From SAR324 cluster bacterium (GTDB taxonomy: Bacteria; SAR324; NAC60-12), in the NCBI GenBank assembly GCA_015232315.1, contig JADFZZ010000001.1, positions 208,835-272,834 on the forward strand: a DNA stretch of 64,000 bases. The letters are read 5' to 3'. Below the pieces are notes generated by a model, which was given only the letters and a program-made list of their open reading frames with translations, did not search any database and had not been told where the DNA came from. Below, in pieces: positions 5,035-57,812 of the stretch; position 1 is the stretch's first letter, and every line of letters begins with the position of its first letter. The translations under genes and the position numbers were made by a program.

Positions 5035-6249
5035 TCATATATTTCCAAGATATTCAAAAGCGATAACTGTCACATCGTCATCGTATGTTCCAAAAGTGAA
5101 TTCATCCAGTGTCCTGACCAGATTTTTCACAAGGGTTTGCAGTGGTAATTCACGGTTCTGCGCTAAAAATGCGCATAGACGTTCTTCACCGAACAGGTTA
5201 TCTTCGCCATCTTTGGCTTCATTCACACCGTCAGTATAAAGAAATCCCCTGTCACCTTTTTTCATGGTATAACGTTCTTCGGTATAAGAAATCCAGTCAT
5301 TTGGAAACAATCCGAGAAGCTTTCCCTTGAGGTTTAACAAAACGGGAGGCTGGCCATCCGCCGGGATAATGATCAGTGACGGATGTCCGGCATTGGCCGT
5401 TGATAATTCTCCTTTGCTGTTGATGCGGGCACAGATTGCGGAAATAAAACGGTCATCAGGCATTTCTTCTTCAAACGTCTGATTCACATGCTTGAAAACA
5501 TCTTCAATGTTGGGACTGTCAATGCTTTGATCCAGTAGCATTTTTGCCATAATCGTCGAAAGTGCCGCGGCTACACCATGACCTGTGCCATCTCCCACAA
5601 ACATATTATAATAACCGTTATGCCCTTCCTTCAGATAATAAATGTCACCTGAAACATGAGATTGAGGATTGTATTGAACGACAATATCCAGAAAAGTCGG
5701 CGGCTTGTAACTGGTAATCAGTTTTTTCTGAACATCCTCAGCCATTTGCAGATCTTCTTCCATCTCCAGTTTCTGGCCCTTGATGGTGCTGTAAGACGCA
5801 CTGAGCGCCTCTTCCGCCATATTGCGCGCCATGATTTCCAGTCGAAGATCCTGCATGCTGCGATGACGTTCCAGATAGCCCATGGTCCGGGCTTTCAGTT
5901 CCTGCATGATAAAAGGCTTGGTCACATAATCCGTCGCACCCAGTTCAAAGGCCTGAATCTTGGAATTGTTATCCGTGATGCCTGTCAAAAATAATACGGG
6001 AACGGACGTATTACCCAGAGTTGTGCGTAGTTCCCTGATGAACATGAGTCCATCCATCACAGGCATTTCCATATCTGTAATGATCAGGTCTATTTCTTCT
6101 TTTTTGGCTATTCGCAAGCCTTCCTGTCCATTGGACGCTTCGAGAAAAGTGAAGACACAGGGAAGCGGTTGAAAGGCCTGTTTGATCACCATTCTGACAA
6201 ATTGGCTGTCATCAATGATCAGCAGGCAATAGTGCGGCTGTTCGGGCAT
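5035..6249 (-). CDS. response regulator receiver fused to a PP2C/SpoIIE-type phosphatase (RsbU-like)
   Basis: REC motifs LLIIDDS...ITDMEMPVMDG and PP2C motif GDGTGHGVAAAL. The ORF track starts at TTG 6264; the first ATG is at 6249. Confidence 0.78.
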   Translation of the reverse strand: MPEQPHYCLLIIDDSQFVRMVIKQAFQPLPCVFTFLEASNGQEGLRIAKKEEIDLIITDMEMPVMDGLMFIRELRTTLGNTSVPVLFLTGITDNNSKIQAFELGATDYVTKPFIMQELKARTMGYLERHRSMQDLRLEIMARNMAEEALSASYSTIKGQKLEMEEDLQMAEDVQKKLITSYKPPTFLDIVVQYNPQSHVSGDIYYLKEGHNGYYNMFVGDGTGHGVAAALSTIMAKMLLDQSIDSPNIEDVFKHVNQTFEEEMPDDRFISAICARINSKGELSTANAGHPSLIIIPADGQPPVLLNLKGKLLGLFPNDWISYTEERYTMKKGDRGFLYTDGVNEAKDGEDNLFGEERLCAFLAQNRELPLQTLVKNLVRTLDEFTFGTYDDDVTVIAFEYLGNI

Positions 6250-6704: not shown

Positions 6705-8312
6705 ATGAAACTGAGAAAAACCAATATCGAACGCTTGAAAAATGAGTCCTTTGATGTGCTGATCATTGGCGGCGGAATCAATGGTGCTGTCTCCGCGGCA
6801 TCTCTGTCTGGCAAAGGCGCAAAAGTCGCGCTGATTGACCGTGTTGATTTTGCCGGATTCACCAGCATGCAGTCCTCAAATCTGGCATGGGGTGGCATCA
6901 AATATCTGGAAACGTATGAATTCGGACTGGTTCGCAAACTCTGCATGTCACGGAACCATTTGATGCGCAGTTATCCCTCCACAGTCCAGGAAATCCGGTT
7001 TTTTACGACACTGGCCAAAGGCTTCCGATACCCTCCATGGTTTCTGTTCTGCGGAACACTGTTCTATTGGCTCATGGGGAATTTTTTCACCAAACCACCA
7101 CGCTATCTGACACCTTCCATCATTAATAAAGAAGAACCTGTGGTCAACACGGACAACAGCAATGGCGGAATGGAATATTCAGACGCGTACCTGCATGACA
7201 ATGATGCCCGGTTTGTATTTAACTTCATTCGAGGTGCCTTGAATTATGGCTGTGCCGCGGCCAATTATGTGGAGTCACTGGGAGCATCACAGAATCAGGG
7301 TTTATGGAAAACAAAAGTGCGTGACACGGTTTCCGGAGAAGAATTCACCATCACTTCCAAAGCGTTGATCAATTGCTGTGGTCCCTTTGTGGATGAACAC
7401 AACCAGATCACCGGTCAGAAAACAGAACATCACCATGCGTTTTCCAAAGGCATCCATCTGATCGTAGATCGTATTACTCCCAACAAAAGAGTACTGACTT
7501 TCTTTGCGGATGACGGACGACTGTTCTTTGTAATCCCGATGGGCCCCAAAACATCGATTGGGACAACCGACACCAAAGTACAATCTCCAAATACCGAAGT
7601 GACTGCGGAAGATCGGAAATTTGTGCTGGATAATATCAACAAACGCCTCAAACTGGAAAAGCCGATCACGGAATCCGATGTGATCGCTGAACGTTGCGGA
7701 GTCCGTCCGCTGGTGGTGTCTGGTAATACTTCAGGAAATCAGGACTGGTTTCAGCTTTCCCGCAAACACGTTGTCGAAGCCAACGTCAAGGATCGTCACA
7801 TCAGTATCTTTGGCGGAAAACTGACTGATTGTCTGAATGTGGGCGAAGAGGTTTTTCATGAAGTTCGAAAATTTGGCGTGGAATTTCCGTTCCCCGATAA
7901 AAAATGGTATGGTGAGCCACCTGATGCGGTGAAAGAAGAATTTTTTCATCAGGCCAGACTGATGAATCTGGATGCGAGGACCCCGGCGACCTCTTCCGAA
8001 AAACTCACATCCAGATTATGGAGACGTTATGGTGCTCATGCACTCGGGATGTTGGAAAGTATCCGACGTGAACCTGAAATGGCAGAACTGCTGATTGAAA
8101 ATTCGGAATATCTGCGGTGTGAAGTCGAAGAAGCCGCGCAACGGGAGATGATCACCAAACTGGATGATTTTCTCCGACGTCGTTCAAAAATCACTCAGGT
8201 CGTTCCTCATGACGTCGTGCGTGATTCCGCAGGCTTGAAAGACGCTTGTGTCATATTTTTCGGTGATCAGGCTGAAGAACGTTACCAGGAATATTTCAGG
8301 GAACATCAGTGA
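6705..8312 (+). CDS. FAD-dependent glycerol-3-phosphate dehydrogenase-like oxidoreductase (GlpD/GlpA family)
   Basis: N-terminal FAD fold DVLIIGGGINGAVSAASL followed by AGFTSMQSSNLAWGGIKYLE. Confidence 0.7.
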   Translation: MKLRKTNIERLKNESFDVLIIGGGINGAVSAASLSGKGAKVALIDRVDFAGFTSMQSSNLAWGGIKYLETYEFGLVRKLCMSRNHLMRSYPSTVQEIRFFTTLAKGFRYPPWFLFCGTLFYWLMGNFFTKPPRYLTPSIINKEEPVVNTDNSNGGMEYSDAYLHDNDARFVFNFIRGALNYGCAAANYVESLGASQNQGLWKTKVRDTVSGEEFTITSKALINCCGPFVDEHNQITGQKTEHHHAFSKGIHLIVDRITPNKRVLTFFADDGRLFFVIPMGPKTSIGTTDTKVQSPNTEVTAEDRKFVLDNINKRLKLEKPITESDVIAERCGVRPLVVSGNTSGNQDWFQLSRKHVVEANVKDRHISIFGGKLTDCLNVGEEVFHEVRKFGVEFPFPDKKWYGEPPDAVKEEFFHQARLMNLDARTPATSSEKLTSRLWRRYGAHALGMLESIRREPEMAELLIENSEYLRCEVEEAAQREMITKLDDFLRRRSKITQVVPHDVVRDSAGLKDACVIFFGDQAEERYQEYFREHQ

Positions 8313-16813: not shown

Positions 16814-17151
16814 CCTTCCTTATCCCACATGCCTGTTTTTCTACATAACATGATCAAGAAAAATGATTGTAATTTGAGGACAACTTACGACATTCCCCTC
16901 TTGGAATGATTTAAGATTATTAAAATAAAATATTTCATAAGATCATTAGCTAACAATATGATATTATTTAAAAATATAAAATCTACTCGACTGGCGTTTT
17001 CTGAAGAAATTTTTGTGGAATGGGAATTTAACGACCTCGACGTTGCACTAATTGGAGAATGTAATACGCTTTAATCAAAATATTATTTTACTTACAGATG
17101 GTTTTTGGGGATCATCTGAATTTAATAACAATCATTTGTGGGGAGGGCCCA

Positions 17152-18957
17152 ATGAAAAAAGTCATAAAAAAAATAATGATATCCTGTTTGGCATTAGGCG
17201 TAATGACCGCATGCCAACCAACCCAGGAAGAGAATCAATTGAATGTTAGCGCTGATAATCAGCAGGGACAGTCTCTCAGTTTTGATAAGTCAATCAGTGT
17301 AGCAGATTCCAGTGAGCGATTGTCTGTCAATCCAGACCTGATTTTTGTGGAAGGATTCAGCAATGGTTTTATGAATACCAACAGTTTTTATACATTAATG
17401 TCTCCCTTGAACAGTATGCTAGGACTCTTTGGAACCAGTGTTGAGGAAATTGTGAGTTCTGTTGCTGGAATCGATTTATCCAGTCAGCCAGGTTATGCGA
17501 AGTGGTATTTCTCAAAATATGCTGACGCATTCCTGGCCCAAGGAAAGGTCAATAAAGTGGGTTATCTCCATTGGGATACGGGTTATAGAATTTTAAGAGA
17601 TGGATTAATAAGCCAAATGGAGGATAACTATAATGGAGCTGGGGCGCCTGGATTACACACCCGGATTCAGCGCATGATGAATGGGACTTATACGGCAAAT
17701 GATGTGAAAAATTTTGATGCATATTGTCCTGGAGCAACTGAAACAGTTACAGAATTTGGCATATCAAATGTTAAAAAATGTAACAATGCCGCCTATAAAC
17801 TTTGTGCTAATGGTTGTATTTTCATGACACACTCCACAGGAGGTCTGGTTTTCGATCGGTTAGTTTATGAAGCTAATCAGGAGAAGCTATATCCGGGAAC
17901 CTACCCTAAACTGGCAGGTGTGTGGGATAAAACCACCATGGCCATTGAAATTTCTTCAGCCGGTGGAGGAACCGAGTTTTCGAACACAGTCATCAACCTA
18001 GTGGTTACTATGTGTAGTGGCGGCACCCAAACGGATCAATTGGTTAACTTTCTTGTAGGAGCCTTGTTCCCGGAATATTCTTGTGTGTCAGGAGGGTTAG
18101 AAACCAACAGCCAAAGGGCTGGTGCAGGTAGAGACTTGATGCCTGCGATTGCTCGTGATGCGACTAATGGAACAAAAGCCAGCTTTGGACGAACACCAAT
18201 TCTTCATATTGCGGGAAATGGAAACATGATGCCAGATGTGGGGATTTTGAGACTGGATTGGATTATTTCTAACAGTTATGGCGGTGCAGGCTATGGAGAT
18301 GGATTGGTTCCTTTAGCTTCTACCTGTGGTGCTAATACGGCAACACCTATCAAGAGTTGTCATCCTAAAGTGAGCCCTACTGGTACAATTGGAACCTATA
18401 GCGCTCCTGCTGGATTGTATACAAACCATCATCCCTTTATCATGACTGGAGAAGGCCATTTGAGCGAAATGAACGCAATTTTCGAAGCTTTGGGTGTGGA
18501 TGATAGTAACTGGGGAACTTATGTGAATCCAATCAACTATGTAGAAGTAGCTTTGAAATCCGGTAATTTGGAGCAAAAAATGGAACAGAGTTTCAGCAAT
18601 AGTGTAGTAGAAGTTCTGGTTCCGCCTCAAGGCTGGGGAAATCCAGAGGTAATGAGAACACAATGTTGGTATGAAACCGGATACGCTGGTGCGGATACAG
18701 CACTGCATACAAATTTGGATACATCCAGTAATTATGGCGGCATGTCCAATCAGGTTGATGACATCACCTGGAGAGGAACCAATACTCGCTATGATTTTTG
18801 GGATTGTGGTGGAAATAAAACGGATTGGTATTATTCCATTACCCAAATGAGCCTTGAAGGGGATGGCGACAGAATGTTCCACCTGTTGAGTAAAAAACTG
18901 GACGCTCGCATGCAACGGGGTGATACGGGACAACAAAACAATATGCAGGTTCAATAA
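17152..18957 (+). CDS. secreted lipoprotein, lipase/esterase-like alpha/beta hydrolase candidate (paralogue A)
   Basis: GGGAGGG RBS; lipobox LALGVMTAC; nucleophile-elbow-like FMTHSTGGLV; acid motif DGLVPLAS; Cys-rich C-terminal half; about 75% identical to 19414..21231. Confidence 0.55.
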   Translation: MKKVIKKIMISCLALGVMTACQPTQEENQLNVSADNQQGQSLSFDKSISVADSSERLSVNPDLIFVEGFSNGFMNTNSFYTLMSPLNSMLGLFGTSVEEIVSSVAGIDLSSQPGYAKWYFSKYADAFLAQGKVNKVGYLHWDTGYRILRDGLISQMEDNYNGAGAPGLHTRIQRMMNGTYTANDVKNFDAYCPGATETVTEFGISNVKKCNNAAYKLCANGCIFMTHSTGGLVFDRLVYEANQEKLYPGTYPKLAGVWDKTTMAIEISSAGGGTEFSNTVINLVVTMCSGGTQTDQLVNFLVGALFPEYSCVSGGLETNSQRAGAGRDLMPAIARDATNGTKASFGRTPILHIAGNGNMMPDVGILRLDWIISNSYGGAGYGDGLVPLASTCGANTATPIKSCHPKVSPTGTIGTYSAPAGLYTNHHPFIMTGEGHLSEMNAIFEALGVDDSNWGTYVNPINYVEVALKSGNLEQKMEQSFSNSVVEVLVPPQGWGNPEVMRTQCWYETGYAGADTALHTNLDTSSNYGGMSNQVDDITWRGTNTRYDFWDCGGNKTDWYYSITQMSLEGDGDRMFHLLSKKLDARMQRGDTGQQNNMQVQ

Positions 18958-19027: not shown

Positions 19028-19413
19028 AAGGAATGGCTCATCAATAACATTCCCAACTATAAATAGTCTTCTCCATAGCTGTGCTTTGGCTGGTTGGAGG
19101 CAAATGGGTAAGTTATTTCTGTGCGATTCCAAAGTGGGTTCCATTAGGACTTTTTACGACACAACTTTCTCCAATTGTCAGATTGGATGAAATCTGGAAC
19201 ACTTAACACTGCACCATAATACACTGATATATATCAAAAAATATTAAAATAAATTGAGAGGGAATTGTTAAAGTGTTTGGTGTAAATATTTTCACGACAA
19301 TCAGGTTGCACAAATAGCAATTAAACACTAATTAATAATTAAAAGATTATTTTTCTTACGAAAGACGGTTATGGGGATCGTCTATAAATCCAAATTTTTC
19401 TCTGGAGGGCACA

Positions 19414-21231
19414 ATGAGAGTAATAATCAAAAAAATCATTATAGCAGGTATTGCCTTGGGATTCATGACCGCATGCCAACCACCTCAGGAGCAGGAACAG
19501 CTCAATGTCGCAGATGTTCCTCAACAGGATCAGACAATCAACTTTGACAAAGCTCTGACTTCAGAAGATTCCTCACTTCGTTTGGCTGATTCAGTCAAAC
19601 CTGATATTATCTTTGTAGAAGGGTTTAGTAACGGGTTCATGAACACCGATAGTTTTTACACATTAATGTCGCCATTAAACAGTATGCTTGGACTGTTTGG
19701 AACCAGTGTTCAGGGATTATTAAGTTCTGTTTCTGGAATTGACACATCCAGTCAACCGGCTTATGCAAAATGGTACTTTTCAAAGTATGCCACTGCTTTT
19801 GAAGCTCAGGGCAAAGTCAGTAAAGTGGGTTATTTGCATTGGGATACCGGGCACCGAATTCTGAGAAGTGGTCCACAAACAAGTCAAATGGAAGATAACT
19901 ATGATGGTAAGGGTAATCCAGGACTGCATACCCGTATTAAACGTATGATGAATGGTACTTACACCGCAAATGATGTGAAAAATTTTGATGCGTATTGTCC
20001 GGGTGCGACAGAGACTGTTTCAGAGTTTGGATTAAGCAATGTCAAGAAATGTAATAATCCGGCTTATGCATTGTGTACCAATGGCTGTATGTTCATGACA
20101 CACTCTACTGGTGGACTTGTTTTTGACAGATTGATTTATGAAGCCAATCAGGAAAAACTAGTCGCTGGTTCCTACCCTAAATTGGCTGGTGTCTGGGATA
20201 AGACAACAATGGCCGTTGAAGTTTCTTCAGCAACTGGCGGAACAGAGTTTGCCAATACCGTCATTAATCTTGTTGTTGCCGCATGTAATGGTCCAAGTCA
20301 AACGGATAAACTCGTGATGTTTTTGGTACAGGCACTGTTCCCACAATATGAATGTAATCAGGCAGGACTGACTTATAATGAAATGAAGGCTGGTGCTGGT
20401 TCAGACTTAGTACCAACTGTAGCTCGAGCGGCAAATACAGGTTCTCAATCAAGTTTTGGACGAACCCCGATTCTGCATATTGCTGGAAATGGAAACATGA
20501 TGCCTAACGTCGGCATTCTGCGACTTGACTGGATTATCGCCAATAGTTACGGCGGTGCTGGCTATGGTGATGGTTTGGTGCCTTTAGCATCAACATGTGG
20601 AGCCAACTCAGCAACACCTATTAAAAGTTGTCATCCCAAAGTAAGTCCTACAGGATCTGTTGGTAGCTATAGTGCTCCCGCTGGATTGTTCACGAATCAT
20701 CATCCCTTTGTCATGACAGGGGAAGGTCACTTGAGTGAAATGAACGCGATTTTTGAAGCATTGGGCGTAGATGACAGCAACTGGGGAACCTATGTAAATC
20801 CAATCAACTATCTAGAAGTAGCTTTGAAATCAGGAAATCTGGAAGAGCGGATGGAGAAAAGCTTCAGCAATAGTGTCGTAGAGGTTTTGGTTCCTCCACA
20901 AGGTTGGGGTAATCCTGGACAGGTACGTGATCAGTGCGAACTGGATAGCGGATATGCCGGAGCGGATTCTGCATTAGCAACCAACTTGGACAGCGTGAGC
21001 GATTTTGGTGGAATGTCCAACCAAATGGATGGTTTTACATGGAACCGTGGTGCTGATGTCGGTAATTGTGGAGCGTTTGGATGGTGGGATAAGTATCGAT
21101 ATACTTATACCGTTACCAGTATGAGTTTGGAAGGTTCTGGTGACAGAATGTTCCATCTGTTGAGCAAAAAACTGGATACACGAATGCAACGTGGTGATAC
21201 AGGACAACAAAATAACATGATCGTCCAGTAA
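19414..21231 (+). CDS. secreted lipoprotein, lipase/esterase-like alpha/beta hydrolase candidate (paralogue B)
   Basis: GGAGGG RBS; lipobox IALGFMTAC; same FMTHSTGGLV and DGLVPLAS motifs. The upstream leader (tggggatcRtct) is also duplicated. Confidence 0.55.
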   Translation: MRVIIKKIIIAGIALGFMTACQPPQEQEQLNVADVPQQDQTINFDKALTSEDSSLRLADSVKPDIIFVEGFSNGFMNTDSFYTLMSPLNSMLGLFGTSVQGLLSSVSGIDTSSQPAYAKWYFSKYATAFEAQGKVSKVGYLHWDTGHRILRSGPQTSQMEDNYDGKGNPGLHTRIKRMMNGTYTANDVKNFDAYCPGATETVSEFGLSNVKKCNNPAYALCTNGCMFMTHSTGGLVFDRLIYEANQEKLVAGSYPKLAGVWDKTTMAVEVSSATGGTEFANTVINLVVAACNGPSQTDKLVMFLVQALFPQYECNQAGLTYNEMKAGAGSDLVPTVARAANTGSQSSFGRTPILHIAGNGNMMPNVGILRLDWIIANSYGGAGYGDGLVPLASTCGANSATPIKSCHPKVSPTGSVGSYSAPAGLFTNHHPFVMTGEGHLSEMNAIFEALGVDDSNWGTYVNPINYLEVALKSGNLEERMEKSFSNSVVEVLVPPQGWGNPGQVRDQCELDSGYAGADSALATNLDSVSDFGGMSNQMDGFTWNRGADVGNCGAFGWWDKYRYTYTVTSMSLEGSGDRMFHLLSKKLDTRMQRGDTGQQNNMIVQ

Positions 21232-21257
21232 GTTTTCGATCAATTTCTGATTCTACA

Positions 21258-21296
21258 TGATTTTTGAAGCGGCAATTTCCTGAGTTTGGAAGTTGC
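21258..21296 (+). terminator. Rho-independent terminator after lipoprotein B
   Basis: agcggcaa...ttgccgct stem followed by TTTTT. Confidence 0.55.
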
Positions 21297-21484
21297 CGCT
21301 TTTTGTTTATGCACTATTAGGGGTTGGTCACATTTTCGACAGTATGTCAGAAAACAGTCTTTGATTTATCACCTGGTTTGGGTTTTGTTCCGTAGGGGCA
21401 GACCTGTCTGCCCGGATCAGGGCGAACACACAGGTTCGCCCCTACAATTTGTGGCCGAAAATATGATCCACCCCTACGTATATT

Positions 21485-21565
21485 CCATAATCCTGACTTT
21501 ATGAGGATTCATTCTGATTCTGTCTTTCCTCCATGCCCATCCTGATTTTTTCTGGTCTATGTTTT
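21485..21565. repeat. family-3 repeat (aatcctgactttatgaggattcat...catcctgattttttctgg)
   Basis: Second copy at 23962..24048; partial copy at 22745..22775. Confidence 0.55.
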
Positions 21566-21570
21566 CTAAT

Positions 21571-21763
21571 CTGAAAAAAACTCTTGTTAAGGAACATTCG
21601 AAAAATAACTTGGGACCTTTCAAATTCCGGTTGACAGTTTGTCATCTCGACGAAGGAGAGATCCGGTTCGCCACGCTTGAAGATCCCTCGTCGCTCGTAC
21701 CTCGCTCTGTCGGGATGACACAGGCAAACTGTAAAGTACTTTTTGACTGATTTTGAAAGGTGC
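21571..21763. repeat. family-2 composite palindromic repeat (core acagtttgtcatctcgacgaaggagagatc...ctgtcgggatgacacaggcaaactgt)
   Basis: Inverted copy at 48471..48650. Its first 45 bp (ctgaaaaaaactct...aaaaataactt) recur at 22852..22897. Confidence 0.6.
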
Positions 21764-21831
21764 CCGGCATGACACAAAAACACAGTTTCGCGACAGCGAC
21801 TAAATAAGGATGTTGCTGTCAAACAAGTAAC

Positions 21832-22074
21832 TCATTCTCTCTCCCACTCTTCACGCATCTCCAGAATTTTCTCATCAATTTTGTCGAAGTGAGTGACTCC
21901 ATAGAATTTTTCTGGATCAAACTGTTTTGAAACAGTTTGAGATGGTTGGTTTTCTTCAACCGGTAATACTACTAATTCAACCTTTGAATAGTGAAAATCT
22001 TTAGGAATGTTTATAATTCCTCTCAAATTTTCCAAATCAATTATTTCCCTTAATGCAATCATCTTAATCTCCAA
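21832..22074 (-). CDS. orphan antitoxin-like small protein (AbrB/VapB-like beta-barrel?)
   Basis: 80 aa with ...KVELVVLPVEE... pattern typical of small antitoxins. No cognate toxin follows; repeats occupy that position. TTG start at 22074 or ATG at 22062. Confidence 0.3.
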   Translation of the reverse strand: MEIKMIALREIIDLENLRGIINIPKDFHYSKVELVVLPVEENQPSQTVSKQFDPEKFYGVTHFDKIDEKILEMREEWERE

Positions 22075-22099
22075 TTCTCTGGTTTTCCTATATATACAT

Positions 22100-22238
22100 G
22101 CGAATCCGGTGTTATAATTTATTCATTAATATCAGCTTCGTTCAGTGTCATCTCGACTTCAGGAGAGATCTTTCAACGCTCAAGGCCTTAAGATTTCTCC
22201 TATCGTCGAAATGGCACAGACTTAACTCCGGATCCACA
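22100..22238. repeat. family-1 palindromic repeat copy B
   Basis: About 90% identical over about 139 bp to 40..180. Confidence 0.6.
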
Positions 22239-22642
22239 TATATCTGTGTGAAAGTAATACTCTATCCATTATTCACAGCAAACAAGGTAAAACCAATGCA
22301 TGAACAGATTTCTGGTTTCAAATCTCCAAAGCGTTACTCCCAGATTAACGCCGTCAATTTTCTTCAGCCTCTTCCCTGTGAATTTGAATTTTCCAGTGGA
22401 AATCCTGATTGAGAGCTTTGAAATCAGGAAGATTGAAGCGGCTGAATGACTTGCTTTACCGTGTTAATATCGACCAGTCTTCCTTCATTGTATTTGTGGA
22501 TAATGCTGGTAATCAGAAAATTTAGGTTGACCTGCAACAGTCAACAAAATGAAATTACCAGTGTCTGGGTAAAAACCAATTTTAGAAGTAAAAAATTTCA
22601 TAAATTTAGAGGATTAGCTAAATTTGAAGTAAGGCGGAAGTA

Positions 22643-22768
22643 CTCAAAACATGAATGCGCTATTGGCGAAACGGTGACCATGGCCGGCGCTGGCATGGAT
22701 GGAATTTGCAGAAAATTAATCATTCCCTATTTTGTCTTTAACCCCATAAGAGTCCATCACAATCCTGA
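22643..22768. repeat. 126-bp direct repeat, left copy, bracketing the BrnTA cassette
   Basis: Differs at two positions from 23855..23980. Confidence 0.65.
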
Positions 22769-22818
22769 TTTTATGAGCACCTTTCAGAGAAAATTGATTA
22801 AAAGATTGCTTAACATAT

Positions 22819-23145
22819 GGCTAATGATACATATAACCCAAGTTGTGACCGATCTGAAAAAAACTCTCGTTGAGGAACTTTCGAAAAATAACTTCCATAA
22901 CTTTTCAAAAAATCATTTCCTGCCGGGCATGCGTAGAGATGCGCGATTCGCAGGTCTCTACAGACCTGGGCAAGGGCTGTGTGTTAAAAAACTTTGGGCA
23001 GTTATTCTTTTGTCGTTCCTAAGGGCATTTCACCCAGATTTTGTGTCATCCCCAATGAATATGCGGAATCTTGACCACGATTTGAGCAGTGATTTCTCCC
23101 TTTGGTCAATATGGCACCGTAGGTCACAACTTGGGTTACATATAT
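22819..23145. mobile_element. MITE-like non-autonomous element with 17-20-bp terminal inverted repeats
   Basis: Left end acatataacccaagttgtgacc; right end ggtcacaacttgggttacatatat (reverse complement). No ORF inside. Carries the hairpin cgtagagatgcgcgattcgcaggtctctacag. Confidence 0.45.
22918..22972. repeat. GC-rich hairpin repeat (family 6)
   Basis: tgccgggcatgcgtagagatgcgcgattcgcaggtctctacagacctg; second copy at 45139..45190. Confidence 0.5.
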
Positions 23146-23175
23146 AAATATGGTTAATTATCAGGATGATGCAAA

Positions 23176-23457
23176 GTGGAATTTGAATGGGATGAGGATA
23201 ACAATAAAATCAACAAGGAAAAGCATGGCATCTCATTTTACGATGCTCAATATGCTTTTGCAGATCCCAATCGTATAGTTGCAAAAGATCTCAAACATAG
23301 CCAAATTGAGAAACGATTTTATTGTTTTGGAAAGGTAAAAGAAGAAATTGTAACAGTCAGATTCACTTACCGAGATCATAAAATAAGGATTATTGGCGCA
23401 GGATATTGGCGAAAAGGGAGAAGTACTTATGAACAGCAAAATAAAATACGTGGATGA
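23176..23457 (+). CDS. brnT: BrnT-family (DUF497) ribonuclease toxin
   Basis: GTG start; MEFEWDEDNNKINKEKHGISFYDAQYAF...RIIGA matches the BrnT pattern. Confidence 0.75.
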   Translation: MEFEWDEDNNKINKEKHGISFYDAQYAFADPNRIVAKDLKHSQIEKRFYCFGKVKEEIVTVRFTYRDHKIRIIGAGYWRKGRSTYEQQNKIRG

Positions 23458-23674
23458 ACCAATGGAGTTTGAGGTTGTTGAGGATTTTCTGCCACCCCCT
23501 GTCGATCTTGTGTTTAAGGAAGAGACGATAAAAGTGACAATCAACCTCAACAAATCCAGTGTAAAATTCTTCAAAAAAAAAGCACAGGAAGTTGGGATTC
23601 CTTATCAAAAAATGATTCGTAAAATAGTAGATTTATATGCGAATCGATACAGTGATACGGGAAGCTCTCATTAA
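23429..23674 (+). CDS. brnA: BrnA-family antitoxin
   Basis: 81 aa, overlaps brnT by 29 nt; C-terminal KKAQEVGIPYQKMIRKIVDLYA ribbon-helix-helix-like region. Confidence 0.65.
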   Translation: MNSKIKYVDEPMEFEVVEDFLPPPVDLVFKEETIKVTINLNKSSVKFFKKKAQEVGIPYQKMIRKIVDLYANRYSDTGSSH

Positions 23675-23854
23675 AACTTTAGGAGTGATAATGGCAATGT
23701 CGGAGTCAGTTTGATGTGCGGATGTTTAAGGCTATCAACGAAAGCCGATACACTTTGTAAATTCAATGAATTAGAGAACCCCTGCAAGGTCAGACGGGAC
23801 GTACGATTTTGACTAAAATTTTACGACCATCTGTATCGGGTTAACCTGGTAGCC

Positions 23855-23980
23855 CTCAAAACATGAATGCGCTATTGGCGAAACGGTGACCATGGCCGGC
23901 GCTGGAATGGATGGAATTTGCAGAAAATTAATCATTCCCTATTTTGTCTTTAACCCCATAAGTGTCCATCACAATCCTGA
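23855..23980. repeat. 126-bp direct repeat, right copy, bracketing the BrnTA cassette
   Basis: See 22643..22768; continues into a family-3 repeat at 23962..24048. Confidence 0.65.
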
Positions 23981-24101
23981 CTTTATGAGGATTCATCAGA
24001 ATCCTGTCTTTCCTTCATGCCCATCCTGATTTTTTCTGGCCTATTTTTTCAAAGTCGATAGTTCTATAAAAAACATCCACAATCATCTGAATGGAGTCGC
24101 T

Positions 24102-24566
24102 ATGGGATTGAGTGTTGAAGATAAAAAAGAAGTGGAGGACTTTGTCAAAAACGTCATGCAGTTGAACCAACTGGATGTGCAGGACCTTCAACAGCAATGG
24201 CGAAAATTCAAGGAAGCTCCTGAAGCCAGTTTGGCGGCACTTGAAGTTCAGACATCAGAACTTGGCCGGGAAATTCGGGAATTCAAGCAGGATGTATCAA
24301 AACGTTTTGAGCAGGTGGATAAACGTTTTGAGCAGGTGGATAAACGTTTTGAACAGGTGGATAGACGTTTTGAGCAGGTAGATAAACGTTTTGAGCAGGT
24401 GGATAAACGTTTTGAGCAGGTGCGTCAGCAGTTGGATGATGTCAACAAAACCATGATGCGGCTCCATGAAAGCATGAATGCCCAGGTCTGGAAATTTCTT
24501 GGCGGATTAGGGGTCATTCTCATTTTGTTACGACTGTCCGGCGCAATTTTTCCTAATCTGCCATAA
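24102..24566 (+). CDS. C-terminally membrane-anchored coiled-coil protein with six KRFEQVD heptad repeats (DUF1640-like)
   Basis: GGAG RBS; heptad array KRFEQVDKRFEQVD...; C-terminal TM FLGGLGVILILLRLSGAIF. Confidence 0.6.
   Translation: MGLSVEDKKEVEDFVKNVMQLNQLDVQDLQQQWRKFKEAPEASLAALEVQTSELGREIREFKQDVSKRFEQVDKRFEQVDKRFEQVDRRFEQVDKRFEQVDKRFEQVRQQLDDVNKTMMRLHESMNAQVWKFLGGLGVILILLRLSGAIFPNLP
24300..24425 (+). repeat. 6 x 21-bp near-perfect in-frame tandem repeat (aaacgttttgagcaggtggat)
   Basis: Units at 24300, 24321, 24342, 24363, 24384 and 24405, with 0-3 mismatches each. Confidence 0.85.
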
Positions 24567-24652
24567 GATGACTCTGCATTGAAACGCACCTGTGCTAGTG
24601 AAATATTGTCATTCCATTCATTGTAATCACACAAACAGCGAAGATATCAGAC

Positions 24653-27421
24653 ATGGATTCTTTAACAAAATTCAAACGAAAAGGTTTCAGCGCTCAAGCG
24701 GCCACAACAGAAGACAACATTGGTTTTCAGATCAACTTTGATCAGACAGGAGCCTACCTGTCTGTCATCAACTCGCAGGGAAAAGAGGTCGATCCGGATT
24801 ATCGAAGTTACAGCGGAATCACCCGGGACATACTTCGTCTGATAGCGGATATTCAACTGAGGCAGGAATTTCAGATTGATTGGGATTCTGACAATTCACG
24901 AGTCTATCTGGCCTCTCATGAATCCCTGATTATGAAACTGCGTCTTCATCCCAAAGTTCTCACCGATTCCGGACAATTGATCAGTTTTTCAAGCCATGCC
25001 GCCAAATTGCTTATGGCTGTTGAGGAGAATGCCAAAAAAAAGCTCAGTGGAAAATTGCGACTGCTTCTTGGCGAGGGGGAATCTCCTGAGGTACGCTTTT
25101 TGACAGATTCTCTGGTTCTTTCGGGCACCACTGTTTATGAAATTCCATCCGCGGGAGAACGGTTTGCTGATCTTGCGATGTTTGAATCTGCGTTTCAGGC
25201 CAATGAACTGGAAAATTTTCTGTCCCTGTTTTATTCCCACTTTGCAGACATTCCGATTCGTTATCAGGATTACCAGTGTGTAGAAGGTCCCACCCGTCTG
25301 GCTCAGGCCGCTCTCGTGTTTGAGAAAATAGACCATGAACAAAATCTCTATCTGCGAGTCAGTACGACCGTGGAAGGTCTGGATGCCGATTTCTTTGAGG
25401 AGTATGAAATCAATCGGTTGGTGACACTCAATGAAATGGAACGTGTGATTCAAATATGTCCCCTGGTCGAGGAAAGCTCAGTGGATGCCTTGCGCGAAAT
25501 CAACAGTCTGTTGAACAAGCGAAAGCGCCAACTGAAGACAGACAATGCGGATTTTTACCTGGAAGAGAATCTGTTCATCATTCAGAAAACACTGGCTCAG
25601 GAATTTATCTATCTGGATTTGCCCAATCTCATTGGTCGCTACTCACTGCTCGGTTCTGAAAAACTGAAAGATTACAAGGTACGTGCGGTCACGCCTCGTT
25701 TGAGTCTGGCATTGGCACATGGCATTGATTTTCTGGAAGGCGAGGCCACCCTCGAGATTGAAGGGCAGAGCTTTTCCTTGTTTGAGGCCATCAGCCTTTA
25801 TCGAAAAAAATCCTATATTCCGTTGACCGACGGCACCCATGCCCTGATCAACCAGGGGTATATCGAAAAGCTGGAACGTCTGTTTAAAAAACAGCAGGAT
25901 CAGGTCAAAGTTTCATTCTTTGATCTTCCCGCGATTGAAGAATTGATTGATGAAAAAGCGGCTCAGGCAACCTTTCCACAATCCCGTGAAATTTTCAGGG
26001 GATTCAATGAATTGAAGGATCAAAAAATCAAACTGCCAACCGTCAAGGCTACCTTGCGCCCCTATCAGCAACAAGGGTACAAGTGGCTTGAATATTTGCG
26101 AAAAAACAATCTGGGAGGATGTCTTGCGGATGATATGGGTCTGGGAAAAACAATCCAGACTCTGACCATGCTGGCTGGCGTGTATCCCAAAGAAAAAATG
26201 CCCTCCTTGCTGGTAATGCCTAAAAGTCTGCTGTTCAACTGGCAAAAGGAAATCGAAAAATTTACGCCGAATATCACGTGTTATGTGTTTTATGGCAATG
26301 ATCGGGATATGGCCAAAGCCAAAGAGCACAATCTGATTCTCACCACCTATGCCATGCTACGCAATCAAATTGAACAGTTTTGCGAGGAACAGTTTTATTA
26401 TGTAGTTCTCGATGAATCACAGAATATCAAAAACATTCAGTCCCAGATTTCCAAGGCTGTTCTGCTGTTGAAGGCTCAACACCGTCTGGCCCTGAGCGGT
26501 ACTCCTGTTGAAAATAATTTGGGTGAACTGTATTCCCTGTTTCGGTTTCTCAATCCTGCCATGTTCAATTCCGCTGATGAATTCAACCGGTATTACATTG
26601 CTCCGATTCAGCAAAACAATGATAAACAGGCGATTCATGAGCTTAAAACAAAAATTTATCCCTTTATTTTAAGACGTCTCAAAAAAGATGTGCTCAAAGA
26701 ACTTCCGGACAAGATTGAGCAGGTGTTGTATGTGGATATGTCTGACGAACAAAAACGGCTGTATCACCAACGGCGTGTGTTTTATCAGGATTCGCTGAAA
26801 CAACAGATCGCGGTGAACGGAATCAACAAATCACAATTTTTTATCTTCCAGGCACTGACCGAATTGCGTCAGATCGCATCCATTCCTGAAGCCCAAAGTG
26901 ATGGAGCGATTGTCTCCCCCAAACGGGAATTGTTGCTGGAACAAATCATGGAATCCACCGCCAACCGACACAAGGTGCTCGTTTTCGGCAATTTCCTTTC
27001 AATCCTCGAGCATGTCGGCGAAGATCTTCAGCAGGCCGGAATCCAGTATCTGGTCATGACTGGAGCAACCCAGGACAGAGGTGCTCTGGTGGAACGGTTT
27101 CAGAATGATCCCGACTGCCAGGTTTTTCTCATGACTCTCAAAACCGGCGGTTTGGGGTTGAATCTCACGAAAGCGGATACCATCTTCATTTTTGATCCCT
27201 GGTGGAATCTGGCCGCTGAAAATCAGGCCATAGACCGCAGTCATCGCATTGGACAGGATAAAACAGTGTTCAGCTACAAACTCATCACCCGTGGTTCCAT
27301 CGAAGAAAAAATCCTTCAACTTCAGGAAAAGAAACGGGAACTGTTTGAAAACATCATTTCCAGTGACAGTGCGTCTATTAAATCATTGAATGAAGAAGAT
27401 ATTAATTTCATTCTCAGTTAA
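24653..27421 (+). CDS. SNF2-family (Swi2/Snf2) ATPase with an N-terminal domain of about 450 aa of unassigned function
   Basis: LRPYQQQGYKWL, DDMGLGKT (Walker A), VVLDESQNIKN (DExx), LALSGTPVENNLGELYSLFRFL, and helicase-C motifs towards the C-terminus. Confidence 0.85.
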   Translation: MDSLTKFKRKGFSAQAATTEDNIGFQINFDQTGAYLSVINSQGKEVDPDYRSYSGITRDILRLIADIQLRQEFQIDWDSDNSRVYLASHESLIMKLRLHPKVLTDSGQLISFSSHAAKLLMAVEENAKKKLSGKLRLLLGEGESPEVRFLTDSLVLSGTTVYEIPSAGERFADLAMFESAFQANELENFLSLFYSHFADIPIRYQDYQCVEGPTRLAQAALVFEKIDHEQNLYLRVSTTVEGLDADFFEEYEINRLVTLNEMERVIQICPLVEESSVDALREINSLLNKRKRQLKTDNADFYLEENLFIIQKTLAQEFIYLDLPNLIGRYSLLGSEKLKDYKVRAVTPRLSLALAHGIDFLEGEATLEIEGQSFSLFEAISLYRKKSYIPLTDGTHALINQGYIEKLERLFKKQQDQVKVSFFDLPAIEELIDEKAAQATFPQSREIFRGFNELKDQKIKLPTVKATLRPYQQQGYKWLEYLRKNNLGGCLADDMGLGKTIQTLTMLAGVYPKEKMPSLLVMPKSLLFNWQKEIEKFTPNITCYVFYGNDRDMAKAKEHNLILTTYAMLRNQIEQFCEEQFYYVVLDESQNIKNIQSQISKAVLLLKAQHRLALSGTPVENNLGELYSLFRFLNPAMFNSADEFNRYYIAPIQQNNDKQAIHELKTKIYPFILRRLKKDVLKELPDKIEQVLYVDMSDEQKRLYHQRRVFYQDSLKQQIAVNGINKSQFFIFQALTELRQIASIPEAQSDGAIVSPKRELLLEQIMESTANRHKVLVFGNFLSILEHVGEDLQQAGIQYLVMTGATQDRGALVERFQNDPDCQVFLMTLKTGGLGLNLTKADTIFIFDPWWNLAAENQAIDRSHRIGQDKTVFSYKLITRGSIEEKILQLQEKKRELFENIISSDSASIKSLNEEDINFILS

Positions 27422-27429
27422 GGAATCTT

Positions 27430-29355
27430 ATGGCGGATCTGAATAAAATATTTAAAAAACTCAGTGATATGGGCATCATTGTGGATAAAACTACAGAGGG
27501 TGTCATCATAGACAAGGTCAGTGAGTTACAGGGCATGGCGAAACCAACACAGCAAAAACCGGAAAACCAGCTCTATGCAATGATTTCCTCAAGCTACACC
27601 AAGGCCATTCTCTCTATTCTTTATGAGAAATGGATCAGGAAGCTTATTGACCGTTTTCCCGAATTGTTCAGAAAACATGGTTGTCCTGTCCCCTTGAAGT
27701 ATCCTAACAAGGACCATCTCACCAGGATGCTGCTGGCGGTGTATTCAGAAAAAAAAATGTTTGACGCATTATGGCAGAACCTGCCGGAGGCGGTACGACA
27801 AATTTTTATCTGGACGATCTGGTATAAAAGATTCTGTCATCAGGACATGCTGGCACAAACACTCAAAATCCAGATTTGGCAAACTGCGGATCGCTACTCT
27901 AATGAACACCATATGTATCTGAAACCAGAGTATCTGTTTTTTTCTTATGAAGTTCAGTACAGTTACCTCAGCAACAGAAATACTGAAAAACCACCCTACA
28001 TTTACAACCTGTATTTCAATCCGGAACTGGGAGAATATCTGAAACAATTCTTGCCCACGCCCGACGGTTATGATTTGCATCCAGAGGCCAAGATTCCGGA
28101 ATGCAGGATTCACGAAAACCGGGGTCTGATCCTTCAGGAGTTGCCTGTGTTATGGGCCTATATCCAGCAGGGCCAACTCAAACTTTCCAATAATGGCAAA
28201 ATTCTGAAAGCGTCTCTCAAGGAATTTCAGAAATTGATGCAGGTTCCTGAATTTTTTGAGGAACAGAATCTGAATTCCCTGCGAACGGAAATGCTCACCA
28301 ATCTGCTGGCCTGCATCAAGATCAAGCCGCAATCCGATCCGTTAAAACTCCTTCAACAGGTTTTTGAAAATTATCAGGTAAAAAACACCTACTCTCATCT
28401 GAATGGTTTGTTGTTTCATCTCAAGGGGCGTTCGACTTATCTTTCTCATATTTATTACGAAGAATTCAATCTTGCTCCAATTCTGGTGCAAAGACTGCTT
28501 TCCGCCTTGCCACAGGGGCAATGGGTATCTTTGGAAAATCTGAAGGATTACGCGAATTTAAGGTCGGTTCCCATCCTGAACGTATTGGATCCTTATCATG
28601 CGACACGCTATCTGCATTATATCTCTGGTGAACAGAGCACGTATGAACACAAAAAGTATATCATGCGTGATAATCTTGAATATACCATCAAACAGCCTTT
28701 GATTGCCGGGTCCATGTTCCTGTACGCCTGTCTGGGATTGGTGGACATCGCTTATGATTTCCCCAAAAATGACGTGGTGCAGGAGCGTCAACTGGGTTAT
28801 CTCAGTGTGTTTGATGGATTGCGCTATGTGCGGTTGACGGATCTGGGTGCCTTTCTTACAGGCAAAACTTCAAGTTACAGTGCTCCGGTCATGGCGGTGG
28901 CTCAGACAAAGGTGCTTCTTGATGAAAATCGCCTGATCTGCGGGCTGGATGGCAATGATCCCGTCAAACGCCTGATTCTTGAAAAAATGGCAAAACCCAT
29001 TGCCTTGAATCATTTCAAGGTTGATCATGAATCCTTTCTGAAAGGCTGTGTGACCAAAAAAGATGTTCAGGAAAAGATTGATCTGTTCCACACTCATATC
29101 GAAGGAAAACCACCTGAAATCTGGAAAAACTTTTTTAAACAGACACTCGCCCGCATCAATCCGCTAACCCATAAAAAAGATTTGCTGGTCTTTGAACTGG
29201 AACAGGATCGGGATCTGATTCATTTGCTGGCGACAGACGCAATTCTTAAAAAACACATTTTGAAAGTTGAGAATTTCCACATCGCCATTGAACGGAGTGA
29301 TTATAATAAGGTTAAAAAAAGATTGGAATCGCTGGGTTATCTGTTAACCAATTGA
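27430..29355 (+). CDS. hypothetical protein (641 aa), translationally adjacent partner of the SNF2 ATPase
   Basis: AAGGAA RBS; 8-bp gap after the SNF2 stop; no Zn-finger or nuclease motif recognised. Confidence 0.5.
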   Translation: MADLNKIFKKLSDMGIIVDKTTEGVIIDKVSELQGMAKPTQQKPENQLYAMISSSYTKAILSILYEKWIRKLIDRFPELFRKHGCPVPLKYPNKDHLTRMLLAVYSEKKMFDALWQNLPEAVRQIFIWTIWYKRFCHQDMLAQTLKIQIWQTADRYSNEHHMYLKPEYLFFSYEVQYSYLSNRNTEKPPYIYNLYFNPELGEYLKQFLPTPDGYDLHPEAKIPECRIHENRGLILQELPVLWAYIQQGQLKLSNNGKILKASLKEFQKLMQVPEFFEEQNLNSLRTEMLTNLLACIKIKPQSDPLKLLQQVFENYQVKNTYSHLNGLLFHLKGRSTYLSHIYYEEFNLAPILVQRLLSALPQGQWVSLENLKDYANLRSVPILNVLDPYHATRYLHYISGEQSTYEHKKYIMRDNLEYTIKQPLIAGSMFLYACLGLVDIAYDFPKNDVVQERQLGYLSVFDGLRYVRLTDLGAFLTGKTSSYSAPVMAVAQTKVLLDENRLICGLDGNDPVKRLILEKMAKPIALNHFKVDHESFLKGCVTKKDVQEKIDLFHTHIEGKPPEIWKNFFKQTLARINPLTHKKDLLVFELEQDRDLIHLLATDAILKKHILKVENFHIAIERSDYNKVKKRLESLGYLLTN

Positions 29356-44290: not shown

Positions 44291-45091
44291 ATGATAGCAC
44301 CGGACATAAAACATAAAATCATCCGGAATTTTTCCCTGCATGCCCGGGAATATGAGAATCATGCGGATTTTCAAAAATATTCGGCAAACCAGTTTTTTTC
44401 CCGTTGCGAGCCGATTCTTCCCTTATGTACACAGCATCCTGTGCTGGAGATTGGCTGTGGAACAGGGTTTGTTTCAGAAATTCTTTTGTCAGCCGCACCA
44501 GACCACCATCTCGAAATCACGGATATCTCACCTGCCATGTTGAGACAATGTCAGGAACGTCTCCTGAGTCGGCAAATTCCCATTAATCATGCGAAATTTT
44601 ATCAACTGGATGGTGAAAAACTGGACACCAGGGAGCATTATGGCCTGATCTTGTCCAATCTTACGTTTCAATGGTTTCTTGATTTTTCCGGGTCACTGGA
44701 AAAACTGATGAAGGCCTTACGTCCCGGGGGATGGTTGGTTTTTTCTGTTCCGGGAAGTGGTTGTTATCCTGAGTGGAAACAGGCATGCATGGCACTCCAT
44801 CTGTCTGTCACGGCCAACAGTCTTCCTGATTTAACGGCCCTCACAAAACAAATGCAACCCCACTCTGCCGGGATTCACCTGGAGCAGATGGAATATACAG
44901 AATGGCACCCCTCCGCCAGAGCTTTTTTCCATAGTCTCAAAGCAATTGGAGCCGCGACCAGCCTTGGTTCGGTCAGGCTGTCGCCTTCAGAATTCAGACG
45001 TTTGCTGGAATATCTGGACGGTCAGGCCTCTGACCGGGGAATACCGGTGACCTACGAATTGGGGATATTCACGCTTCAGAAGCAGGCGTAG
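44291..45091 (+). CDS. bioC: malonyl-ACP O-methyltransferase BioC-like SAM-dependent methyltransferase
   Basis: LEIGCGTGFVS SAM motif I; HAREYENHADFQKYSA N-terminus resembling BioC. Confidence 0.55.
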   Translation: MIAPDIKHKIIRNFSLHAREYENHADFQKYSANQFFSRCEPILPLCTQHPVLEIGCGTGFVSEILLSAAPDHHLEITDISPAMLRQCQERLLSRQIPINHAKFYQLDGEKLDTREHYGLILSNLTFQWFLDFSGSLEKLMKALRPGGWLVFSVPGSGCYPEWKQACMALHLSVTANSLPDLTALTKQMQPHSAGIHLEQMEYTEWHPSARAFFHSLKAIGAATSLGSVRLSPSEFRRLLEYLDGQASDRGIPVTYELGIFTLQKQA

Positions 45092-45138
45092 GAACACTCA
45101 AAAATTAGAATAGAAAACTTTCCAAAAATATTTCTTCT

Positions 45139-45190
45139 GCCAGGCACACGTAGAGACGCGCGATTCGCACGTCTCTACAGATCTGAAAAT
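45139..45190. repeat. GC-rich hairpin repeat (family 6) between convergent bioC and trmJ-like
   Basis: ctgccaggcacacgtagagacgcgcgattcgcacgtctctacagatctg; may act as a bidirectional terminator. Confidence 0.5.
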
Positions 45191-48470: not shown

Positions 48471-48650
48471 GTGCACCGTTCAAAATCAGTCACAAGTACT
48501 TTACAGTTTGCCGGTGTCATCCCGACAGAGCGAGGTATGAGCGACGAGGGATCTTGAAGCGTGGTGAACCGGATCGCTTCTTCGTCGAGATGACAAACTG
48601 TCAACCGTGATTTGAAAAGTGCCAAAGATTTCAGTGATTTTTCAGAGCAT
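48471..48650. repeat. family-2 palindromic repeat, inverted copy
   Basis: Reverse complement of 21571..21763 at about 90% identity. Confidence 0.6.
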
Positions 48651-57354: not shown

Positions 57355-57620
57355 AATCGCGTGCGACCAAACGCTTTTGGAAATGTTTTGAACGACTGCC
57401 TCAAGAAATTCAGAAGCAGGCCCGTGAAACATACCGGAAATGGCAAGAAGACGCTTTTTATCCCAGCCTGGATTTTAAACAGATACATGCTGTAGAACTT
57501 GTTTACTCTGTCAGAATTGGCAGGGGATGGCGAGCTGTCGGAGTAAAAGAACACGACACGATAATTTGGTTTTGGATAGGTTCACATGAAGAGTACAATA
57601 ATTTGATCGCACAAATATAA
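57351..57620 (+). CDS. RelE/ParE-superfamily toxin
   Basis: 89 aa with ...VYSVRIGRGWRAVGVKEHDTIIWFWIGSHEEY... typical RelE/ParE-fold pattern. Confidence 0.55.
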   Translation: MKSRATKRFWKCFERLPQEIQKQARETYRKWQEDAFYPSLDFKQIHAVELVYSVRIGRGWRAVGVKEHDTIIWFWIGSHEEYNNLIAQI

Positions 57621-57763
57621 AGCTGTCTCACACTACACTGAAGTTGACTCCACACCCCGGGCAGACCTGTTGCCAACGGTCAATAATTTGATCGCACAAA
57701 TATAAAGCTGTCTCACACTACACTGAAGTTGATTCCACACCAGTCAGACCTGTTGCCAACGGT
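57596..57763 (+). repeat. tandem direct duplication (85 bp + 83 bp) that includes the last 25 nt of the toxin gene
   Basis: Copy 1 at 57596..57680, copy 2 at 57681..57763; about 95% identity with one 2-nt indel. Confidence 0.8.
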
Positions 57764-57812
57764 CATTAGAGATCATGTTCCTGATTTCTGAAAAACGCCT
57801 CTGTATTCCAGA

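Follow-up and report, generated by a model that had tools for sequence, protein, structure and literature searches.

A brnTA toxin-antitoxin module between 135-bp direct repeats in a SAR324 cluster genome: candidate insertion with long target duplication

Two near-identical direct repeats enclose a brnTA toxin-antitoxin pair in a chromosome of the SAR324 cluster. Are these repeats ends that a mobile cassette carries along, or a trace of the way in which the pair entered its present site? The question was addressed in a stretch of 64,000 nucleotides, here called the window, from a metagenome-assembled genome (MAG) of a SAR324 cluster bacterium (locus tags HQM11_; BrnT deposited as MBF0349563.1). 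The window is ordinary chromosome, with genes for chemotaxis, IspH, GltX, RodA, KdtA, RecC, SurA and flagellar rod proteins. BrnTA is a type II toxin-antitoxin system, represented by BrnT/BrnA of Brucella abortus and by the Pfam families PF04365 and PF14384. The features needed below are listed here; R is the direct repeat, E a separate repeated module that overlaps its end, and L081 and L082 are metagenomic loci with the closest brnTA relatives.

21486..21569, no strand assigned: E copy 1, 88% identical to copy 2, with no R in front of it
22643..22777, no strand assigned: R copy A, 135 bp; it closes with the first ~17-20 nt of E, which breaks off after TTTATGAG
22778..22835, + strand: insert head; behind its first 33 bp, from ~22811 on, it holds the left half of the region conserved in front of brnT, with TACATATA at the end
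22836..23136, no strand assigned: MITE, 301 bp, with inverted ends and a target duplication, 39 bp upstream of brnT
23137..23175, + strand: right half of the brnT upstream region, with the second ATATGGTT motif; colinear with L081 and L082 once the MITE is left out
23176..23457, + strand: brnT toxin gene, 93 aa, GTG start, PF04365; product identical to NCBI MBF0349563.1
23429..23674, + strand: antitoxin gene, 81 aa, ribbon-helix-helix, BrnA/CopG-type; NCBI MBF0349564.1, "CopG family transcriptional regulator"
23675..23854, no strand assigned: insert tail, 180 bp, without similarity to L081 or L082, to 86 fetched loci or in plasmid and phage BLAST
23855..23989, no strand assigned: R copy B, 135 bp, running unbroken into an intact E module
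23970..24053, no strand assigned: E copy 2, complete, with ATCCTG in each of three iterations and with a short hairpin; overlaps the end of R copy B
24102..24566, + strand: downstream host gene for a 154-aa coiled-coil/membrane protein, 113 bp past R copy B

The initial annotation described direct repeats of 126 bp, and alignment bears out both their coordinates (22643-22768 and 23855-23980) and the number of differences between them, exactly two (C/A at 22694 and A/T at 22751). BLAST stretches the pair to 135 bp (22643-22777 and 23855-23989, 97.8% identity) with a third mismatch at 22769, so that the exact-match blocks are 51, 56, 17 and 8 bp long. Copy B follows copy A at a spacing of 1212 bp, and the sequence between them (22778-23854) amounts to 1,077 bp; the brnTA pair at 23176-23674 lies within it, as had been described. 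Both copies have sharp borders, since background identity is reached within a few bases past either side. R occurs in exactly two copies within the window, and self-comparison of all 64 kb ranks the pair as the non-tandem repeat of highest identity. A 37-nt core of R gave no match in 100 shuffled windows. GC content of R is 43%, that of the window 45%.

The assignment of BrnT to its family is firm. It scores 81.7 bits against PF04365 (cutoff 34.5) over model positions 1-75 of 77, it has 7,966 relatives at E<=1e-10, all of which carry PF04365 among the matches listed, and it matches a "toxin" chain in PDB (7vd7_A, E 9.5e-8); NCBIfam returned no match. The partner gene overlaps brnT by 29 nt. 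Its product reaches 21.7 bits against PF12441 (CopG_antitoxin), below the cutoff of 28, and matches neither PF14384 (BrnA) in the Pfam profile search nor, usefully, any PDB sequence. Among its relatives, seven of eight match PF12441 weakly and four of eight match PF14384 (best E 1.2e-5). The order of brnT and its partner is colinear in L081 and L082, at 81-83% DNA identity. "BrnA-like ribbon-helix-helix antitoxin" is thus a fair description of this candidate and does not imply strict membership of the BrnA family.

Further, the initial annotation placed a MITE-like element next to the cassette. The element is a true MITE enclosed by the repeats; its position, however, is inside the cassette, upstream of brnT, and not merely adjacent. 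Its terminal inverted repeats are perfect (15/15 bp, ACCCAAGTTGTGACC, at 22836-22850 and 23122-23136), as is the 8-bp target-site duplication TACATATA (8/8 bp, 22828-22835 and 23137-23144), and its interior holds only short unsupported ORFs. The window contains one full copy; internal parts resemble 21569-21611 (93%) and 45090-45185 (77.6%). When the MITE and one copy of the duplication are removed, the two sides of the insertion point join into a sequence that is colinear with the regions preceding brnT in L081 and L082. In these regions two conserved ATATGGYT motifs, 24 bp apart, flank a palindrome (TACATATGTA in L081, 4940-5000), and it is this palindrome within the conserved region (22811-22835 and 23137-23175) that the MITE entered. 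The region is a putative promoter/operator, which the MITE would have split or rewired. The 135-bp repeats are not attributable to the MITE, which the cassette contains as a passenger.

We wondered if the module is native to this chromosome. GC content of brnTA is 35.7% (window 45%), and its relatives in L081 and L082 have ~35.5% in hosts of 48 and 50%. The next-best BrnT proteins after its own record are 76-78% identical. L081 and L082 match the window at 81-83% DNA identity over ~22811-23656 (MITE excluded) and have nothing in common with it beyond; in both, brnTA adjoins oligopeptide-transporter genes. A module of ~36% GC in hosts of 45, 48 and 50%, with unrelated neighbourhoods, is foreign in composition and moves between contexts. 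Judged from composition and relatives, it looks horizontally acquired. Plasmid and phage BLAST gave a sole match, a 48-nt stretch of brnT on an Acinetobacter plasmid. L081, the contig with the 76% BrnT relative, carries, besides brnTA, a second toxin-antitoxin pair between direct repeats: a vapBC-type (PIN) pair flanked by 289-bp repeats at 5693-5981 and 7712-8000 (84% identity, pieces of oppC paralogues), a segment that is absent from the related contig L082.

The repeats do not share this history. R is absent from L081 and L082, the closest brnTA relatives, and its GC content is 43%; it therefore does not travel with brnTA. Searches of metagenome and viral collections and BLAST against the 86 fetched loci revealed no further copies of R, E or the MITE. 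These results bear on the proposal that the module is mobile owing to its flanking repeats. Horizontal acquisition is supported by the GC content of 36% and by relatives at unrelated loci, whereas the repeats as the cause of mobility are not, since the relatives lack R, R was found nowhere else in the searches made, and copy A ends inside E.

The last point requires a closer look at E. Copy A of R holds just the first ~17-20 nt of E and diverges after TTTATGAG, while copy B continues into the complete module. An intact E without a preceding R at 21486-21569 shows that E exists independently of R and that copy A breaks off within E sequence. Copies A and B are 98% identical and the two E copies 88%, so the duplication of R is younger than the surrounding repeats.

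These surroundings are rich in repeats. Six of the ten repeat pairs of the window touch a 2.9-kb tract (21232-24101), in which at least six distinct repeat relationships are found, including E in two copies, pieces of the MITE and two other MITE-like families. Three further short dispersed families are represented by 40-182 and 22100-22241, by 21610-21763 and 48473-48625 on the opposite strand, and by 22873-22968 and 45090-45185 (78-92% identity across the three families). Some of them have hairpin-forming cores, for example GTCATCTCGAC...GAGAGATC, and all three probably add to the MITE-like elements of this genome. A GC-rich palindromic unit, GTAGGGGCAGACCTGTCTGCCC...GGGCGAACACACAGGTTCGCCCCTAC, lies at 21385-21447, directly 3' of the terminator-like hairpin (21266-21302) of a 605-aa gene. 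Between the repeat elements an orphan ORF of 80 aa (21832-22074, minus strand) has no match in Pfam or NCBIfam; it may be the one gene that separates the 605-aa gene from brnT in the NCBI annotation, judging by accession numbering, or a relic of another small module. Elsewhere in the window, the spacer preceding a flagellar rod gene contains two tandem copies of an 85-bp unit (57596-57765, 94% matches).

Several identities for R were tried and rejected. Rfam gave no match at gathering or permissive thresholds, which speaks against an RNA gene, and folding of R is no better than that of shuffled sequences (z +0.88 as DNA, +1.25 and -0.59 as RNA of the two strands), which speaks against a structured site. 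As a coding relic, its open frame was compared with 1.84 billion representatives and yielded one chance match of 22 residues to a repeat protein. The idea that R and E regulate the 154-aa gene and are conserved with it was discarded at the distance of its 62-69% homologues, upstream of which both are absent. Integron, integrase island and composite transposon were rejected for want of recombinase, tRNA or attC features: no integrase or transposase domain and no tyrosine recombinase domain or IntI was found among the window ORFs scanned, no tRNA in the 64 kb, and no GTTRRRY or RYYYAAC core site could be read at the ends of R. An ORF of 233 aa spanning R and the MITE (22446-23147) is spurious, since it has no Pfam match and its path leads through non-coding repeats.

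The chromosomal setting was compared with that of related genomes. A sibling MAG (GCA_015231535.1) is 98.6% identical rightward from inside the helicase gene (24748) and 81-93% identical left of the tract, which places the brnTA tract at a sharp divergence breakpoint. Its contigs (L083 and L084) end at the window equivalents of 20473 and 24748, leaving 20474-24747 as a gap. In the genome-contig search the next relatives reach at best 61% identity at the flanking helicase and have no upstream synteny. The 154-aa gene downstream of copy B is the probable original right-hand neighbour of a single ancestral R-E. No R or E was found upstream of its homologues in other organisms. The same MAG has an 84% paralogue elsewhere (HQM11_17915, 140 aa).

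Some features of the neighbouring genes deserve mention in their own right. The 154-aa protein has a C-terminal hydrophobic segment, and within its gene a 21-bp unit (KRFEQVD) is repeated 5.9 times in frame (24300-24422). It is followed at 24653-29355 by a SNF2-family helicase (922 aa) and a 641-aa protein without Pfam match, which are paired in most fetched loci across many phyla (75 tblastn matches to the 641-aa protein, 80 loci). The two may form a two-gene system that awaits characterisation. The repeat-rich tract is directly preceded by tandem paralogues of 619 and 605 aa (17072-18945 and 19336-21219, ~73% DNA identity) without Pfam domain; the pair is also present in the sibling MAG.

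The reading that we favour, and to which we give about an even chance, is that foreign brnTA reached its place before the 154-aa gene by an insertion that duplicated 135 bp of the target, and that the MITE came later. A horizontally acquired module of ~770 bp, made up of both genes with ~90 bp of leading and 180 bp of trailing sequence, would have entered the intergenic spacer that precedes the 154-aa gene, where R was presumably present as a single copy. Insertion would have duplicated 135 bp of local target, leaving one copy on each side, without any dedicated recombinase encoded nearby. The duplication might have arisen, for example, when the two ends of the incoming DNA were attached to staggered points of the target, or to sister chromosomes at points that differ. 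The 301-bp MITE would have transposed into the brnT upstream region afterwards. Since R is unseen elsewhere and copy A ends inside an E that is intact beside copy B, the two copies look, from their arrangement, like duplicated local target, that is, an insertion scar, and not like ends carried by a mobile cassette. The borders of R are arbitrary and cut across the pre-existing E, which argues for segmental duplication of local target and against two insertions of a discrete element. Simple interruption of one R-E would leave the remaining part of E behind the insert, where instead a complete second R begins with its first base.

The same R-X-R arrangement would be produced exactly if R were part of the mobile unit. 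A circle of R and brnTA, released from a donor by recombination between two R copies, would enter by Campbell-type crossover at a resident R and could leave by the same way; the exact blocks of 51 and 56 bp could sustain homologous recombination, and the three mismatches could be polymorphisms between donor and recipient. We nevertheless consider this unlikely. The closest brnTA relatives lack R, which turned up at no other place in the window and in no fetched locus, metagenome collection or viral collection; R has the GC content of the host (43%) and the module has 36%; and since copy A ends inside the local E, the end of the cassette would include a fragment of a host repeat. Moreover, an earlier R-X-R is presupposed and left unexplained. 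A comparably low probability is assigned to chance or relic flanking, in which R (or R with E) belongs to a dispersed or once-tandem family and two members, one truncated at its 3' end and perhaps homogenised by gene conversion, happen to flank brnTA. "Chance insertions between repeated sequences" are a class listed by Furuta et al. (PMC2853133). Flanking of this kind retains some probability because six of the ten repeat pairs touch the tract, which behaves as a repeat sink, and the 84% paralogue of the 154-aa gene might have an R-E of its own. On the other hand, the 64 kb contain just two R copies, 98% identical, while other families are at 77-93%; the borders of R are sharp and do not decay; what follows the insert is a second R complete from its first base and not the remainder of an interrupted member; and homologues of the 154-aa gene in other organisms have neither R nor E upstream.

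Less probable still is an assembly artefact, in which a short-read assembler would have threaded a loop (a strain variant, a separate locus or a small circle that also has R) into the chromosome. In its favour are the nature of the genome as a MAG, the presumable source study, which used metaSPAdes defaults and discarded scaffolds below 2 kb, and the contig ends of the sibling MAG to the left and right of the tract. However, the R copies differ at three positions and share no exact block longer than 56 bp, so that ordinary reads span the blocks and phase both copies to their flanks; the 377-kb contig is continuous, and NCBI gene numbering is consecutive across the region. Toxin-antitoxin cassettes are typical of the chromosomal-integron arrays of Vibrio, and R and/or E might be recombination sites, attC-like or otherwise, of a small array served by a recombinase encoded elsewhere. 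The length of 126-135 bp resembles that of Vibrio chromosomal-integron repeats, E or R-E units precede three successive segments (E1; copy A with its stub of E; copy B with E2), and the homology of A and B ends inside a small hairpin. Against these points stand the lack of a stable single-strand fold in R, the lack of core sites at its ends and of an integrase in the window, and the fact that just one repeat pair is near-identical; a site-specific cassette system is therefore exceedingly improbable. We would give hardly more credit to a non-integron cassette array of SAR324 at 21470-24100 with boundary sites of R/E type and an unlinked recombinase or nicking enzyme. If real, such an array would shuttle toxin-antitoxin and other small genes in SAR324, and the duplication of R would break exactly in the E hairpin.

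Insertion with long target duplication remains the preferred reading. According to established knowledge of recombination, the exact blocks of 51 and 56 bp in principle permit RecA-dependent deletion or amplification of the 1.2-kb unit. There is no sign that the R copies mobilise the cassette, and recombinational loss or amplification would be a side effect of the scar.

Insertion with long target duplication is an established pattern for restriction-modification units (Nobusato et al. 2000, Gene 259:99; Furuta et al. 2010, PMC2853133). In these cases, recognised by genome comparison, the repeats are 46-423 bp long and genome-unique, the inserts are smaller than 20 kb and mobility genes are missing; the long flanking repeats later permit amplification or loss of the unit (PMC2853133). 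Furuta et al. 2010 considered inserts below 20 kb with direct repeats above 30 bp (PMC2853133); here the insert is 1,077 bp and the repeats are 135 bp at 97.8% identity. Window scans detected no linked mobility genes and no tRNA-integrase att site, the MITE being non-autonomous. Concerning uniqueness, R has two copies in the 64 kb and none in the collections searched. In the accessible part of the toxin-antitoxin literature, the term "long target duplication" appears to be cited for restriction-modification systems only.

If our reading is right, this recombinase-independent route, described for restriction-modification units, also serves a type II toxin-antitoxin pair, and it operates in an uncultured, probably magnetotactic lineage of SAR324. 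It would also support the view that addictive two-gene modules in general enter chromosomes in this way and leave repeats through which they can be lost or amplified. The pattern is already known for selfish pairs, and the locus is an ordinary example for a systematic survey and not a discovery in itself; one locus that is unverified and comes from a metagenome-assembled genome can offer no more.

How does the locus compare with known systems? As in other BrnTA systems, the toxin gene comes first and overlaps a downstream gene for a ribbon-helix-helix antitoxin; here, however, the antitoxin matches only PF12441, below cutoff. The 301-bp element shares with MITEs the 15-bp terminal inverted repeats, the 8-bp duplication, the lack of coding capacity and an empty site in brnT homologues, but the window has no second full copy and no cognate transposase, only related internal fragments. 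With cassettes of chromosomal integrons (attC/VCR) the locus has in common a toxin-antitoxin pair between near-identical direct repeats of ~130 bp, whereas attC hairpin, core sites, IntI and a cassette array are missing here. In comparison with restriction-modification insertions, the cargo differs, being a type II toxin-antitoxin pair, and with a toxin predicted to be an RNase the proposed tie to DNA double-strand breaks made by the cargo falls away; that class is defined by its empty site. What this locus shares with them is a small selfish unit between long direct repeats, 135 bp in the present case, that were seen at no other place in the window or the collections searched and have no linked integrase or transposase.
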